Shown: positions 7,845-17,600 of the stretch, piece after piece | Layout: each line of letters begins with the position of its first letter | Numbering within the stretch: position 1 is the first letter of the stretch | From: an uncultured Candidatus Saccharibacteria bacterium | GTDB lineage: Bacteria > Patescibacteriota > Minisyncoccia > Phycocordibacterales > Phycocordibacteraceae | DNA: 45,143 bases | Direction of reading: 5' to 3' | Assembly: GCA_964349285.1 (NCBI GenBank) | Contig: CAYGFQ010000001.1 | Location: 1 to 45,143 of the forward strand | Program-made: the position numbers and the translations under genes | The notes under the pieces: model-generated | Database searches by the model: none | Seen by the model: the letters and a program-made list of their open reading frames with translations, nothing else | What the model was told of the DNA's origin: nothing

Positions 7845-8309
7845 ATGAAACCCAAGCGCGTTGCGCCCCTTGTGTGGGTTGGATTTCTCCATGCCCTCAC
7901 CTCATCCTTCCTGGCAGGCCTCGTGATGTGGCTTTTGTCTCTTATCGTTGGTTACACGCTCGGTGAGAATGTCTTTTATGCCTTTGCGCTCTGGGCAGAG
8001 ACACCGCTTGGCATTACTACTGTTTCACTCGTCTCCCTCCTCGTCCTCCTCCTCGCGTCCTATAACCAAGCTCGATTCATTCGCGAGCGCTATGAATATC
8101 CAGACGCAGCTAAGGTCGCACTGCATGCTGTCGTATGGTTTGCGGGTATTAGTGTCGCCTTCTTTGTCCTTGATCTTTGGGACGGGTACGCGTGGGCGTG
8201 GACTGACTTCCTTGTGGAGGGCCTCGCCATTCTTCTCTTCTACCTCGCAAGCAGGAAATTCCTCCGGGTGCGTTCTCTTGGTGCCCCATCTCAGTCTCGA
8301 ACTGGATAG
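7845..8309 (+). CDS. Integral membrane protein (about 4 TM), unknown function
   Basis: Four hydrophobic segments (LVWVGFLHALTSSFLAGLVMWLLSLIV, ITTVSLVSLLVLLLA, VVWFAGISVAFFVL, LVEGLAILLFYLA) and a leaderless-type promoter. Confidence 0.6.
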   Translation: MKPKRVAPLVWVGFLHALTSSFLAGLVMWLLSLIVGYTLGENVFYAFALWAETPLGITTVSLVSLLVLLLASYNQARFIRERYEYPDAAKVALHAVVWFAGISVAFFVLDLWDGYAWAWTDFLVEGLAILLFYLASRKFLRVRSLGAPSQSRTG

Positions 8310-11731: not shown

Positions 11732-13195
11732 ATGACGTTCTCCGTTCCGAACGAAGTAAAGGTGGTCGCTGAAGGCCTTCGAAAGGAAGGATTTGCGGCC
11801 TATCTTGTGGGTGGCTGTGTCCGGGACCTCTTCCTAAAACGTACCCCCAAAGACTGGGATATAACGACAAATGCAAAGCCTGAGGATATTCAGCGCATCT
11901 TCCCTGAATCCTTCTACGAGAACGATTTCGGGACGGTTGGCGTGAAGACTGAATCTGAAGATCCTGCACTTGCCGTCATTGAAGTAACTCCCTACCGCAC
12001 CGAGACTGGCTACTCTGATAAGCGTCGTCCGGACAAAGTTGAGTTTGGACAGAGCCTTGAGGAAGACCTTGCTCGCCGGGACTTCACCATTAACGCCATT
12101 GCCTTCGATGAGGCTAAAGGACAAGTCGTCGATCCGTATAAAGGACAAAAGGACATTGAGCTCAAGGTCCTCCGAACGGTTGGTAACCCCTCCGAGCGCT
12201 TCGAGGAAGACGCTCTTCGCCTTATGCGGGCAGTTCGCCTGGTGGCTGAGCTTGAATTTGCCCTTGATACCGAAACTGCGGCCGCAATACAGGCTAAAAA
12301 GGCTAATCTATCCCATGTTTCACGTGAAAGAATACGGGACGAATTCGTCCGTATTCTCGAGTCCTCTCAACCGATGATGGCTCTGGTTCTCTCACATCAG
12401 CTGGGCATCCTCGAGTACATAGCTCCCGATCTCCTTCGAGGTATTGGTGTAGACCAAAACCAGGCTCATAGCTTTACCGTCTTTGAGCACAACCTCCGGA
12501 CTATGCAGCATGCTGCTGATAAGGGCTGGGACCTCGATATGCGCCTTGCAGGCTTGTTCCACGACATAGCAAAGCCTGAAACACGTCGCTGGTCCGATGA
12601 GAAGAAGGATTGGACGTTCTACGGCCATGAGGTTGTGGGGTCCCGGGTGGCAAAGAAAGCCATGGAGGAGATGCGGTTTTCACGTGAAACTATCGAGCGG
12701 GTAGCGAAGCTTGTTCGCTGGCATATGTTCTTCTCAGACCCTGACCAGGTAACCCTTTCAGCCGTCCGAAGGACTATCCGGAACGTAGGCGAGGAGAATA
12801 TCTGGGATCTTCTGAACCTCCGCATTTGTGACCGTATAGGCACCGGGCGCCCTAAAGAACAGCCGTTCCGCTTCCGGAAGTACAAAGCCATGGTGGAAGA
12901 GGCCCTGCGGGACCCCATCTCCGTCGGTATGCTGAAGACCGATGGCAACCGCCTTATGGACGTCTTTCACGTGAAACCTGGGCCCGTCATAGGTTTTACC
13001 CTCAATGCCCTCCTTGAGGAGGTTCTCGAGGACCCTAAGCTCAACACTGAGGAATATCTAGATAAGCGAACTGTGGAGCTCTTGGCGCTCCCCGAAGTAG
13101 AGCTAAAGAAGCTCGGAGAATCTGGAAAGAAGAGGAGGGGAGAGGCTGAGGAGGCTGAAGTACGTAAAATCCTTGAAAAGCACCACGTGTCCTAG
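11732..13195 (+). CDS. cca: CCA-adding enzyme (tRNA nucleotidyltransferase with C-terminal HD domain)
   Basis: Nucleotidyltransferase motif AYLVGGCVRDLFLKRTPKDWDITT, RRDFTINA, and HD motif GLFHDIAKP. Confidence 0.9.
   Translation: MTFSVPNEVKVVAEGLRKEGFAAYLVGGCVRDLFLKRTPKDWDITTNAKPEDIQRIFPESFYENDFGTVGVKTESEDPALAVIEVTPYRTETGYSDKRRPDKVEFGQSLEEDLARRDFTINAIAFDEAKGQVVDPYKGQKDIELKVLRTVGNPSERFEEDALRLMRAVRLVAELEFALDTETAAAIQAKKANLSHVSRERIRDEFVRILESSQPMMALVLSHQLGILEYIAPDLLRGIGVDQNQAHSFTVFEHNLRTMQHAADKGWDLDMRLAGLFHDIAKPETRRWSDEKKDWTFYGHEVVGSRVAKKAMEEMRFSRETIERVAKLVRWHMFFSDPDQVTLSAVRRTIRNVGEENIWDLLNLRICDRIGTGRPKEQPFRFRKYKAMVEEALRDPISVGMLKTDGNRLMDVFHVKPGPVIGFTLNALLEEVLEDPKLNTEEYLDKRTVELLALPEVELKKLGESGKKRRGEAEEAEVRKILEKHHVS
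12316..12331. other. parS site 1 (ParB-binding centromere-like palindrome), inside cca
   Basis: TGTTTCACGTGAAAGA matches the parS consensus TGTTNCACGTGAAACA at 15/16. It encodes V-S-R-E-R. Confidence 0.75.
12676..12691. other. parS site 2, inside cca
   Basis: GTTTTCACGTGAAACT has a perfect 12-mer core TTTCACGTGAAA (13/16 overall). It is identical over 17 nt to site 4 and is in the same codon phase as site 1 (F-S-R-E-T). Confidence 0.7.
12963..12978. other. parS site 3, inside cca
   Basis: TCTTTCACGTGAAACC matches at 14/16 with a perfect core. It sits in a different codon phase (F-H-V-K). Confidence 0.7.
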
Positions 13196-13196
13196 G

Positions 13197-13212
13197 GTTT
13201 TCACGTGAAACT
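13197..13212. other. parS site 4, 2 nt after the cca stop
   Basis: GTTTTCACGTGAAACT matches at 13/16 with a perfect core. It overlaps the -35 region of the TAGAAT promoter at 13226. Confidence 0.7.
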
Positions 13213-13225
13213 CAGAAATACGGCC

Positions 13226-13231
13226 TAGAAT
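13226..13231 (+). promoter_or_regulatory. Orphan -10 box TAGAAT with no ORF behind it
   Basis: It is the same hexamer used by leaderless genes in this window. The predicted TSS at about 13238 sits at the 5' end of the structured element. Confidence 0.4.
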
Positions 13232-13237
13232 ATAGAT

Positions 13238-13410
13238 AGGGCGGCTGTTTCATGTGAAATACAAAAAGCCGCCTAACCGAGGCACGACAGCGGAAGAGGA
13301 GACGGTACGAGGGGTGACTGTACCCTCTTCCGCTGTCGTGCGGGGACCCGAAAATTGGAGGGGGCAATGTGATGGCGGGTCCCGGGAGAGTGGCTTGGCG
13401 GCTTTTATGG
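13238..13410 (+). ncRNA. Candidate structured ncRNA or MITE-like nested palindrome (family not recognised; strand inferred from the promoter)
   Basis: Closing helix AAAAGCCGCC (13264-13273) / GGCGGCTTTT (13397-13406). Perfect 18-bp hairpin GCACGACAGCGGAAGAGG (13282-13299) / CCTCTTCCGCTGTCGTGC (13324-13341). 8-bp hairpin GGGACCCG (13343-13350) / CGGGTCCC (13376-13383). An alternative 5' pairing partner GGCGGCT lies at 13240-13246. Confidence 0.35.
13246..13261. other. Degenerate parS-like site 5
   Basis: TGTTTCATGTGAAATA matches at 14/16 and lies in the loop of hairpin GGCGGCT/AGCCGCC. Confidence 0.45.
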
Positions 13411-13425
13411 TGTGAACTCTTGCGT

Positions 13426-13441
13426 TGTTTCGCGTGGAACG
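13426..13441. other. Degenerate parS-like site 6
   Basis: TGTTTCGCGTGGAACG matches at 13/16. Confidence 0.35.
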
Positions 13442-13629
13442 TTCTATCCCGCTTAAGTTTCAGGGGATACGCCCCGGTTTCGTAGGATGAGCGACGTTGC
13501 GAAGACGCTTTGGATCAAAGAACGCGCAAAGAACAGCCTTTGTGCAGGACAATCATTGAACTGAATCATCAGAGTGCCTCGCTCTGAGAGTAATCATAGT
13601 CCTTTATAGGACATCGTAAAGGACATACG

Positions 13630-13638
13630 TGTGGATAA
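13630..13638 (+). promoter_or_regulatory. Consensus DnaA box (TGTGGATAA = TTATCCACA)
   Basis: 9/9 match, preceded by GGACAT and flanked by 11-bp direct repeats TCCTTTATAGG (13600-13610 and 13641-13651). Confidence 0.4.
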
Positions 13639-13644
13639 TGTCCT

Positions 13645-14412
13645 TTATAGGGTTATGGAGATAGGGCAGTGGTCTGAGCCGTAGATGTCAGGGTGTATCT
13701 CTGCCTTCTTTACGCTCTTCAGAAATTCACGAGAGATGAAGAAGTAGTCGATGCGCCAACCGACGTTACGGTCTCGAGCTCTCGTGAAAAGGTCCCAATA
13801 TGAATAGGCGACTCTATTCGGGTTGCGGTCCCGCCAGACATCCACATAGCCTGCTGCAATAACTTCGTCTATCCATGCGCGCTCTTCAGGAAGAAAGCCA
13901 GTATTCTCTTCGTTAGCTTCTGGTCGCGCAAGATCAATAGCTTCATGTGCCGTATTTACGTCGCCACAGAAAATGACTGGCTTTTGTTTCCTCAATTTCT
14001 CGCAGAAGGTAAGGAAAGCGTCATAAAAGCGGAGTTTGTAGTCAATCCGGTGAGGGCCCTGTCCACCGTTAGGGAAGTAGCAGTTTATAAGCCAGAAGTC
14101 CTCGTATTCAGCTGCAAGGAAACGGCCCTCATCATCGAATTCCGGGACCCCTAGCCCATAAAGCAAGGAAATAGGCTCTATTTTGGTGTATATAGCGACC
14201 CCGCTATATCCCTTCTTCACCTTAGAAGAGGCGAAGAATGAGGAGAATCCGGGTACCTCCCGAAGGTCTTCCGGAAGCTGCTCCGGGGAAGCCTTGGTCT
14301 CCTGGAGACAGAAGATATCTGGCTTCGTACCTTTTAGGAATGCTTTCCAAAGTGCAGACTCATCCTTTCCAAGGGAGCGTAGCCCGTTCACGTTCCAGGA
14401 GACAATTTTCAT
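13645..14412 (-). CDS. xth: Exodeoxyribonuclease III (AP endonuclease)
   Basis: MKIVSWNVNGLRS..., FCLQETK, GYSGVAIY, NCYFPNGG, FCGDVNTAH, WDLFTRARDRNVGWRIDYFF and SDHCPISI are all Xth/ExoIII family motifs. Confidence 0.9.
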   Translation of the reverse strand: MKIVSWNVNGLRSLGKDESALWKAFLKGTKPDIFCLQETKASPEQLPEDLREVPGFSSFFASSKVKKGYSGVAIYTKIEPISLLYGLGVPEFDDEGRFLAAEYEDFWLINCYFPNGGQGPHRIDYKLRFYDAFLTFCEKLRKQKPVIFCGDVNTAHEAIDLARPEANEENTGFLPEERAWIDEVIAAGYVDVWRDRNPNRVAYSYWDLFTRARDRNVGWRIDYFFISREFLKSVKKAEIHPDIYGSDHCPISITL

Positions 14413-14427: not shown

Positions 14428-14463
14428 GGGGACATCCTGTGGATAGGGTGGCTTTCCAGAATA

Positions 14464-14491
14464 TTGACAGGCCCGGGGCGAAGCATAGGAT
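14464..14491 (+). promoter_or_regulatory. Sigma70-type promoter of the giant surface-protein gene
   Basis: TTGACA (14464-14469), 16-nt spacer, TAGGAT (14486-14491). This implies a 5' UTR of about 180 nt, unlike most genes here. Confidence 0.5.
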
Positions 14492-14679
14492 TGAAGATAG
14501 CTCGTACCTTGTGCGGGAGAGTCCAGGAACTCCCAGTCACGGGTCTCAACTTTTCACCCCGGCTAGAGGTTTTTGTTGCACTTCTATCTGCATGGGTATG
14601 CGGCGGGGCAATGTTTCTCTTATTAAGTTCGGAATGTGCAGCGACGTGTGATGGCGTCGCAGGTAACAACTAATTACAT

Positions 14680-17600
14680 ATGAATATTATTTCTGCATGG
14701 ACAAGACATGCTCCGCGACGGAGTGTGGCTTTCCTGCTTGCACTCGCACTTCTTGGCGGATCGTTTGCATGGCCTCAGACGACGAGTGCAACAACTATTG
14801 TTTCCGATACCTTTGGGGTTGGCAGCAATAGTTTTAATGACCTCGCCAATATCCTCGACTGGAACGAAGAAGGGGATGACGACGACTCAATAACGCTTGC
14901 AAAAGTAGGAGGCAACTCCGGCGCAGACGTCCGAAGTCCGGGCGACGAAACCAACGGTCGCTTCGCGAAGATTGGTTACGACTCTCAGAATCACAAAGGA
15001 GAGTGGATTTGTCGCCAGGTAAACTCGTCCAACTATTACAACCTCACCTTGGAGTACCGTTGGAATGGAGATTCCGATGCTGAGAATAACGAGGATTACG
15101 GAGTTGTTGAGTACCGCTCCACCAGTAACGGTAACACCGACCAGACCTGTAACTCTGACTCAAGCGGCTGGACACAGCTTCCAGGAGCAACGCACGAACT
15201 AGAGGCGGAGGAGGATTGGAGTTCAGTACAGGAAATTGAATTGCCTGCGCTCCTAAACAACGATTCTTCATGGTTTATCCGCTTCAGGAACGCTGCGGAA
15301 GATAACAGCACGGGTGGCTTCCGCGGCTTCCATGATCAACCTGCGAGCGAATACTTTCGTGTCGACAGTGTTCTGATTGGAGGCGACTACGACGTTCCTG
15401 GCTCACCGACCGTAACAATCAATCAGGCAGATACCCAGGCAGACCCTACGGGAGATACTCCTATCCTCTTCACGGCTGACTTCAATGAGCCAGTTTTTGG
15501 TTTTGAAGATGGGGATGTCATTATCTCAGGTACTGCACTTCCGACCAGCGTCGACGTGGTCGGCAATGATGGAGATGACATATACACCATCAAAGTGAGC
15601 GGCATGAGTGGAGATGGGACCGTCGTTGCAACTATTCCTTCAGGAGTTGCTGAAGACATAGCAGGTAACGACAATGCTGCCTCGTCATCAACTGACAACA
15701 CCGTCACTTACAACCTTCCAAACCGCGCCCCGCTCGCAGACCCACAGAACGTTGTAACCGACGAAGATACTCCGGTTAACATCACCCTCTCCGGAAGTGA
15801 TCCTGATGGTGACTCCATCACATATGAAGTCGTCATTCTCCCTAATCATGGAAACCTCACCGGTACCGAGCCGAATCTCACCTACACACCGGACGATGAT
15901 TACTTCGGGCCAGACTCCTTCAAGTTCATCACCGACGATGGAGCCCTCAACAGCGTTAGCGCCGAGGTAAAAATCACCGTCAATCCTGTTGAAGATCGCT
16001 GCCCAACCGGCTACCATTTCAACGAGAGCGAAGTATGCGTGCCAGACGAAGTTGAACTTCCTGGACAGTGCATCATCGTGAGCGATGCTCTCACCCTCGT
16101 TGACACGAACGATGAAACGGATAGCCCGGCAGATCCGCTCTCCTTCGTACACTCAGCGTGGGATCACACCCTCGAGTCTGCCGCAACGTGGATCTGGGGT
16201 GATAACCCTGTCCAAGACCCTACCATCGACGAGACACAAGTCTTCACTCGTACGTTCTACCTTGAGGAAGCACCGACAAGCGCGACCCTCGTGCTTGCAT
16301 CTGACAACGGCTACCTAGTAAAGGTAAATGGGACTCAGATGGGTACTGACGAGCTCGGGACGTTCGACCCGAATCCACCGCATACCTTCAACCCCACCAC
16401 GAGCATTCCAGTCACAGGTCTTATCGCAGGAGCAAACACCCTTGAGGTGACAGTCTTCAACAAAGGAACTCCAGGGGAATCCAACCCTCAGAACAACCCC
16501 GCGGGTCTCATCTACAAGCTCACCGTTAACGGTAGCGACTGTGGCGAGCCAAAGGATGATCCGGTCAACTCCTGTATCCTCCCTGAAGGAAACGACAGTG
16601 ATCCGATTGTGTTCGGAGAAACGCCAGTCGAAGAAGACACGCTCCAGACTATTCTCGACGACGCTTACGGTGTTGATGCACCGGACGCAGACCTTGATCA
16701 AGACAACTTCGAGGAGTGGGCTGGTACGGGAAACACGGTCAACTTCACAGTTGAGAACATCAGTGAAGACTCGAACTCAGGCCACAGCCATGTGTTCGGT
16801 TACTACTTGAATGGTGGTGACTTCACCCCAGTCTTCCGTGATGGCTCCGTCGGTGCGCCCTACAGTGGAGCTCCCGATCTTGCCTTCGCGAACAGCCTTG
16901 CCTTCTCGGTAGCAAACGTAAACGACATTGTCTTCGCAATCGCTGACTGGGATGCTGTCGAGTACACGTACTTCGCAACGGATGCATCGCTGAACGCTGG
17001 TAGCGAAGTGCATGCAGTCTCGTACAACGTCGACAACAACAAGTACGCAATTGCCTTTGAGGACCTGCCGTTCTCCGAAGGTGACGAAGACTACAACGAT
17101 GTTGCCGTTGCTCTTGAGATTGTTTCCTGCGAAGCGGGAGCAACCTGTGAGCCAGGCGTCGAACTTCTTGCAAACGGCACCTTTGAGGTTCCGGAAGTGG
17201 GTAGTTCGCTCTGGGATATCTTCAACATTGATGAATATCCAAACCTCGCTTGGGCAGCCGAGTGGCTCAATCCAATCGGTGCTCCACCGATTGCAAACGT
17301 TGAACTCCAGGAGACTGGCCTCAATGGTTGGTCTGCAACGGGCGATGGAGATCAGTGGACTGAACTCGACTCTGATTGGAACGGACATAAAGAAGGACCA
17401 AACAACGAAGCAGGTCAGGTAGCAATTTCCCAGACCATCGACACGGTCCCGGGTGAAACCTACACGCTCACCTTCGACTTCTCACCACGTCCGCAGACGG
17501 ACGCTGCACAGAACAAAGTCGAGGTGCTCGCAAATGATGTCGTCTTCGGTACGGTTGGTCCGCTCGCGACTGCCGGAAACCAGACGGAATGGACATCCCA

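Follow-up and report, generated by a model that had tools for sequence, protein, structure and literature searches.

A predicted structured non-coding RNA gene in the cca-xth gap of an uncultured Candidatus Saccharibacteria bacterium

The window analysed here is a stretch of 45,143 nucleotides (nt) from an uncultured Candidatus Saccharibacteria bacterium (assembly GCA_964349285.1, contig CAYGFQ010000001.1, positions 1 to 45,143 of the forward strand), whose genome of 678 kb is 99% complete. It is an ultra-small bacterium from groundwater and belongs with the Kaiserbacteria-like Paceibacteria. Between the genes cca and xth lies a gap (13196-13644) that holds no open reading frame (ORF) of 60 amino acids (aa) or more, as a preliminary description of the window had already stated. 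This gap probably encodes a stand-alone structured non-coding RNA that lies on the minus strand and is co-directional with xth. Judged from its sequence, the RNA would start near 13586 and end in a U tail near 13258; from promoter to terminator it spans ~325 nt here and ~240 nt in relatives. Conservation and covariation among relatives, as read from alignments, provide the decisive support for an RNA.

Relatives, which carry the labels Candidatus Kaiserbacteria, Paceibacteria or Patescibacteria, keep the same arrangement: cca, a gap of 310-494 nt, and xth on the opposite strand. A DNA search of these relatives at first matched only a 50-nt block adjoining xth; alignment of their gaps revealed conserved blocks along the whole gap. 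Within its own genome the gap is single-copy, as a whole-genome search with it returned only the self-match. The RNA gene, its parts and its two neighbours are listed below by window coordinates.

13258-13586, minus strand: predicted non-coding RNA gene, ~325 nt (promoter scan, alignment with 33 relatives, matches to covariance models R1 and R2, RNA contig)
13593-13620, minus strand: predicted sigma-70-type promoter, with -35 TTTACG at 13620-13615, a 16-nt spacer and -10 TATGAT at 13598-13593 (promoter scan)
13630-13638, minus strand: perfect DnaA-box consensus TTATCCACA, ~9 nt upstream of the -35 box, a putative DnaA site (sequence match)
13617-13648, minus strand: inverted repeat TAAAGGACA / TGTCCTTTA flanking the DnaA box, including the xth stop codon (repeat search, alignment)
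13407-13586, minus strand: 5' domain, ~150-180 nt, with H0, a long-range helix, H2 and H3 (R2 match, helix test)
13514-13535, minus strand: hairpin H0, AAAGGAC / GUUCUUU (proposed helix)
Within the 5' domain, minus strand: long-range helix GCGCU / AGCGC (proposed helix)
Within the 5' domain, minus strand: helix H2, CCUGCC / GGCAnGG (proposed helix)
13463-13475, minus strand: hairpin H3, with the loop CGUAU here, of the form CG(U)AU (proposed helix)
13397-13406, minus strand: 5' strand of helix P1 (AAAAGCCGCC on the RNA), with an A-rich linker before it (alignment)
13343-13383, minus strand: hairpin P2, 8 bp, with a conserved C/U-rich 25-nt loop AUCACAUUGCCCCCUCCAAUUUUC (stem covaries at 7 of 8 pairs, loop sequence conserved)
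13282-13341, minus strand: perfect 18-bp hairpin between P2 and the 3' strand of P1 (lineage-specific insertion)
13258-13273, minus strand: 3' strand of P1, GGCGGC, with the U tail (UUUUUGUAUUU), a predicted intrinsic terminator (promoter/terminator scan, alignment)
11732-13195, plus strand: cca, neighbour of the gap
13645-14412, minus strand: xth, the other neighbour of the gap, convergent with cca

Promoter, terminator and transcript

The promoter of the RNA is located immediately after the xth stop codon and points into the gap. Its -35 box (TTTACA), spacing and -10 box (TAnnnT) are kept in all 33 aligned relatives. The promoter block also follows xth in more distant Paceibacteria, whose -10 box is often a perfect TATAAT. 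In the preliminary description, transcription had been assigned to the plus strand through the hexamer TAGAAT at 13226-13231; the hexamer is present, but the promoter of the RNA lies instead on the minus strand at 13620-13593. The DnaA box is also conserved in relatives, where it takes the form TT(A/G)TCC(A/C)CA. It occupies the loop position of the inverted repeat TAAAGGACA / TGTCCTTTA, which may serve as the terminator hairpin of xth. The 9-mer TGTCCTTTA/TAAAGGACA itself forms two more clusters of three copies each in coding regions, one inside cca (window 12105-12148) and one at G000:C27:8127-8233; genome-wide, it has 9 exact copies versus ~5 expected.

RNA polymerase would thus start at the promoter 13620-13593 and end at GGCGGC plus the U tail near 13273-13258. 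In ~29 of 35 homologues this end carries a hairpin (stem 5-8 bp, loop 3-6 nt) that leads directly into UUU. The window's own copy has a weaker proximal terminator hairpin (13270-13284) in addition to P1. The terminator is one part of the RNA and not the whole of it. Beyond it, the minus-strand sequence contains only the antisense of cca, which begins ~65 nt on. No conserved ORF or start codon is found in the RNA, and its conserved blocks fall in different frames. A small protein was considered and rejected, as the ORFs of the gap are not conserved and neither is the sole candidate start codon, an AUG after AAAGGAC.

The locus is also represented in environmental RNA. A soil metatranscriptome contains a 192-nt contig that corresponds to 13383-13574 with 3 mismatches. 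In the same data cca is uncovered, and the only match on xth is a short conserved fragment (13733-13767) whose flanks are unlike those of the window. Another RNA contig, at four times the depth, aligns with 13446-13489 and departs from the window sequence to either side, as expected of the homologue of a relative. These contigs show that the sequence is present in RNA, its strand and ends being read from the DNA. For a rare bacterium of the Candidate Phyla Radiation (CPR), it is likely that only abundant, stable RNAs would assemble from such data.

Conserved fold and competing pairings

When the gap was folded and compared with 200 shuffles, z-scores of -7.4 (plus strand) and -8.3 (minus strand) were obtained, and none of the 200 shuffles folded equally well. 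A folding z-score alone is not a sufficient sign of function. More telling is a minus-strand 3' architecture shared by every relative folded, in which the long-range helix P1 encloses the hairpin P2. In relatives P1 has the form AAAGCCRCCC / GGGYGGCUUU, followed by the U tail. In the window's own copy AAAAGCCGCC at 13264-13273 pairs with GGCGGCTTTT at 13397-13406 over 10 bp, and the P2 stem is formed by GGGACCCG at 13343-13350 with CGGGTCCC at 13376-13383. Both helices had been described previously and are borne out, as is the perfect 18-bp helix (13282-13299 / 13324-13341). The P2 stem varies among relatives; its loop, (A)CCAUCAnnUACGCCCCUGCUCCUUUU, is conserved.

To describe the 3' domain, a covariance model (R1) of 95 positions was built from 10 sequences. 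In a structure test of 35 sequences, 91.5% of helix cells were paired, and 12 of the 18 pairs of the domain showed changes on both sides (77 cells), so the compensatory changes that the preliminary description had proposed to look for in homologous loci do exist. The observed values were reached by none of 500 shuffles, and controls in which the partners were slid gave only 31-54% paired. The 35-sequence alignment was fitted to the R1 model and is biased in its favor; the signal had already been seen in a model-free MAFFT/RNAalifold run.

The helix cells contain 54 G.U pairs versus 9 A.C. Since these counts would swap on the opposite strand, the selected RNA is the minus strand, and the plus-strand transcript proposed earlier is not supported. 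In agreement, R1 gives 60-100 bits for the minus sense and at most 26 bits for the antisense. On the window's own copy R1 scores just 30 bits (13256-13409, minus strand) because of the 18-bp hairpin insertion. This hairpin, the most striking feature in the preliminary description, is missing from 33 of the 35 homologues aligned. Its stems are unchanged in a groundwater strain of 98% identity, and the sole difference within the hairpin falls in the loop, at 13314. The 145-nt element of the preliminary description is only the 3' third of the ~325-nt RNA.

The 5' domain shows good sequence conservation. Its proposed helices are 83% paired, versus 35-49% in slid controls, and the model built on them (R2) matches 13398-13545 on the minus strand with 31 bits (E=2.7e-5). 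A pseudoknot between the AAAGGAC of this domain and the P2 loop was considered; AAAGGAC is better accounted for by H0, where it pairs with GUUCUUU.

The two pairings that meet at the 3' end may give the RNA a switch-like character. The 3' strand GGGYGGC has two alternative partners in ~29 of 35 homologues, the distal AAAGCCRCCC and a proximal GCCRCC. Pairing with the proximal partner is perfectly Watson-Crick and gives a canonical terminator hairpin before the U tail, and pairing with the distal partner is often made via wobbles. During transcription the proximal hairpin would probably form first and terminate, and P1 with the distal AAAGCCRCCC would be the final, more stable state. The preliminary description had seen the switch in AGCCGCC at 13267-13273, which is indeed complementary to GGCGGCT at both 13240-13246 and 13397-13403; however, the conserved switch takes the form given above, and the third GGCGGCT copy (13240-13246) lies outside the RNA, beyond its terminator. 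The motif GCCACCA also invited comparison with a tRNA acceptor end. Such a mimic was rejected, as the motif is merely CCRCC and is set by pairing to the terminator strand. A and U tracts stand on both sides of P1. From its sequence, P1 together with the A-rich linker appears symmetric enough to double as a terminator of the convergent cca.

In a search of 151 genomes of the genus, R1 found one full-length copy per genome in ~85 of them, with E-values down to 1e-26 and always between cca and xth; shorter matches are generic terminators. In further members of the genus, R1 and R2 matches lie co-linear and side by side downstream of xth. By eye, loci of more distant Paceibacteria show the promoter, a hairpin resembling H0 and, ahead of the terminator, a hairpin whose loop reads ...GCCCCU(G/U)C(U/C)CCAAUU.... 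The RNA family is probably wider than the genus and fast-evolving.

Known families, alternative explanations and possible functions

To date, no described family accounts for the RNA. Rfam 15, whose families include 6S, signal recognition particle (SRP) RNA, RNase P, transfer-messenger RNA (tmRNA), riboswitches, OLE, ROOL and raiA, gave no match at the gathering threshold in the gap of the window or of 14 relatives. In E-value mode, the gap and 20 relatives gave only scattered chance matches, mostly to microRNA hairpins. The earlier view of a structured RNA with mutually exclusive pairings that is neither SRP RNA, RNase P, tmRNA nor 6S RNA is therefore upheld; the RNA gene is genuine and previously undescribed, and its product is a structured small RNA that matches no described family.

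Like the housekeeping RNAs of bacteria (6S, SRP, RNase P, tmRNA), the cca-xth RNA is conserved, single-copy, structured and detectable in total-RNA metatranscriptomes. Unlike them, its 5' and 3' ends do not pair with each other. A divergent RNase P RNA or tmRNA was rejected, as both are encoded on other contigs of the genome. For 6S RNA, the best RF00013 match lies elsewhere (18 bits), and the consensus fold of the cca-xth RNA consists of independent 5' and 3' domains. SRP RNA was rejected as well: neither RF00169 nor RF01854 matches anywhere in the genome, and no Ffh/FtsY-type GTPase was found in the lineage.

A closer comparison is offered by small RNAs of the RoxS/RsaE class (the RsaE class of Rfam), which are trans-acting RNAs with C-rich apical loops and an intrinsic terminator. 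In common with them, the cca-xth RNA has a stand-alone intergenic gene with its own promoter, unpaired C/U-rich sequence in a hairpin, a Rho-independent terminator with a U tail, and a single copy. In contrast to them, it is ~2-3 times longer, has a large structured 5' domain and carries one long loop instead of several short C-rich motifs. It also matches them neither in sequence nor by model, and no target was found for it. The 16S ribosomal RNA (rRNA) of its host's lineage also lacks the CCUCC tail, and Shine-Dalgarno sites are thus no obvious target class.

The RNA may act in trans, its exposed pyrimidine-rich P2 loop binding a purine-rich RNA or a protein, with DnaA modulating the promoter. 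We offer this only as a tentative proposal, although the existence of the RNA itself is likely. Several observations weigh against one or the other. The RNA evidence amounts to one low-depth, direction-less soil-library contig that ends before the 3' domain. Covariation in the 5' domain is modest, with double changes in 10 of 30 pairs. Bidirectional termination could by itself account for P1 and its A and U tracts. In searches beyond the genus, R1 yields generic terminators only, and R2 gives no matches in a search too insensitive to recover even the window's own genome. With regard to targets, scans of the window's genome and of the genus for extended complementarity to the P2 loop returned the RNA gene only, a kind of scan by which short seeds cannot be judged. 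Duplex energies of the P2 loop with the window's five Shine-Dalgarno-led genes were within background.

The alternative that survives best, though we think it unlikely, is a cis-regulatory device in which a ligand or factor sensed by the 5' domain determines the partner of the terminator strand, so that read-through antisense into cca interferes with that gene. The conserved competing pairings at the terminator would suit such a device, as would the strict cca/xth synteny and the fact that cca antisense is all that follows the terminator, ~65 nt downstream. The RNA shares with riboswitch and attenuator platforms one strand with two exclusive partners beside a U tract. It departs from them in that no gene follows on the same strand (cca is convergent), and no known aptamer matches; a riboswitch was rejected on these grounds. 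Since both helices sit directly before the U tract, neither alternative is a classical antiterminator. The conserved P2 and its loop would also be left without a role.

A second alternative, which we regard as improbable, dispenses with a functional RNA: the convergent cca and xth would share a bidirectional terminator in the gap, next to ParB (parS) and DnaA binding sites of an origin-proximal centromere region. The convergence of the genes speaks for it, as do the GC-rich P1 helix between an A tract and a U tract, the conserved DnaA box and the location of all parS sites of the genome at 12316-13441. However, unlike in bidirectional terminators, P1 is long-range and encloses a conserved hairpin, and a separate proximal terminator hairpin is present. 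A terminator needs neither a conserved 25-nt loop nor a conserved 150-nt 5' domain, and it needs no dedicated, conserved -35 and -10 boxes pointing into the gap. The covariation and wobble pairs are strand-specific, the RNA contig is confined to the gap, and many relatives keep the RNA with no parS at the equivalent positions.

A further possibility takes its cue from two absences in the lineage. For the SRP, searches of the window's genome with RF00169, RF01854, PF02978 (the M domain of Ffh) and PF00448 (the SRP54-type GTPase domain of Ffh/FtsY) found nothing. Neither protein domain was found in 40 relatives of the order, closed genomes included, where PF00448 gave only weak P-loop matches; it was positive in 14 of 14 control genomes. 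A lineage-wide loss of SRP is possible on this pattern of searches. In the 16S rRNA, the tail after helix 45 reads GGAACAUAUCCAAUUGG and not GGAUCACCUCCUUU in 27 of the 29 readable 3' ends of the genus (L205:6274-6400; L210-L239), and the exceptions look like contaminant contigs. With GGAACAUAUCCAAUUGG as its tail, the rRNA lacks the canonical anti-Shine-Dalgarno CCUCC, which fits the leaderless gene starts of the window. This finding comes from relatives, as the window's own assembly has no 16S 3' end.

The failure to find SRP GTPases and the loss of the CCUCC anti-Shine-Dalgarno tail together suggest that the RNA could be a lineage-specific housekeeping ribonucleoprotein RNA of Kaiserbacteria-like Paceibacteria. 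Its synthesis would be coupled to the replication cycle through the DnaA box and the origin-proximal centromere position, and it might supply or mimic in trans a function carried on the ribosomes of other bacteria. The P2 loop holds AUCA...C(U/C)CUCCUUUU, a sequence similar to the 16S 3' end that is missing (GAUCACCUCCUUU). We consider this reading speculative and much less probable than the trans-acting RNA set out above.

Still less credible is the plus-strand transcript from ~13238, which would be driven by TAGAAT 13226-13231 and fold into nested hairpins. Many relatives do carry TATAGAAAC on the plus strand beside P1, and the plus strand also folds well. On that strand, however, the helices would contain 54 A.C mismatches and only 9 G.U, the R1 scores favor the minus sense as given above, and the RNA contig lies upstream of the main body of such a transcript, reaching 13574. 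An antisense promoter at 13226-13246 is possible.

The weakest alternatives, a mobile palindrome (a miniature inverted-repeat transposable element, MITE, or repetitive extragenic palindrome, REP) or a replication origin, can be set aside: the perfect 18-bp stem and the nearby DnaA box and parS sites would invite them, but the element, suspected earlier of being a MITE or REP, is single-copy in the 678-kb genome, its hairpin is a species-specific insert inside a conserved gene, only one DnaA box is found here, and dnaA lies 12-57 kb away in five relatives. In the complete 993-kb genome of the relative G017, the cumulative GC-skew minimum lies near 780 kb and dnaA at ~783 kb, 58 kb from the RNA gene (724.5 kb). 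Four DnaA boxes with at most 1 mismatch stand within 180 nt beside dnaA in G017 (C1:782878-783055), a likely oriC, and the perfect DnaA boxes of that genome switch strand preference around 560-600 kb. The RNA locus is origin-proximal and not the origin.

Genomic surroundings and significance

The RNA gene shares its surroundings with a set of parS-like sites. The window contains 6 of these versus 0.27 expected by chance, among them those at 13197-13212, 13246-13261 and 13426-13441. Since all 6 convincing parS sites of the 678-kb genome lie within the 1.1 kb of 12316-13441, this segment forms the only centromere cluster of the chromosome. The RNA gene incorporates two parS positions, and many relatives keep the RNA without them. 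These sites and a feature just outside the conserved RNA are as follows.

13246-13261, no strand assigned: parS-like site 5, abutting or overlapping the U tail of the terminator; a parS stands here in many relatives too (sequence, alignment)
13426-13441, no strand assigned: parS-like site 6, within the transcribed part and coinciding with a variable hairpin, H5 (sequence, alignment)
13226-13246, plus strand: TAGAAT hexamer and third GGCGGCT copy, outside the conserved RNA and downstream of its terminator (sequence)

Other elements were observed around the locus. A composite of a DnaA box and GGACAT (window 14430-14446), upstream of xth, occurs nowhere else in the genome. As a conserved element it was rejected, since 28 of 30 relatives do not keep it at that position; it is probably species-specific or due to chance. 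The gene for an 1814-aa surface protein has a good promoter match (TTGACA, 16 nt, TAGGAT; 14464-14491) about 190 nt ahead of its ATG. The long leader (14464-14680) that would result is unusual in a mostly leaderless genome and may hold another regulatory RNA element. Finally, G000:C27:7431-7999 is a stretch of 570 nt with no ORF of at least 90 aa and with a perfect DnaA box at 7876-7884.

As far as literature searches showed, very few non-coding RNAs other than the universal ones are on record for CPR bacteria (Patescibacteria). Since their genomes are tiny, a conserved non-coding gene of 240-330 nt is costly. The RNA described here is well supported by a strong conserved promoter, covariation, a fixed address between cca and xth and evidence of expression in nature, and it corrects the reading of the gap as a possible MITE. 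The two covariance models, together with the coordinates, allow the RNA to be annotated in hundreds of genomes and searched for in metatranscriptomes. With a DnaA box at its promoter and parS sites at its terminator tail and at an internal hairpin, the RNA gene offers a testable link to the replication and segregation machinery of these bacteria.

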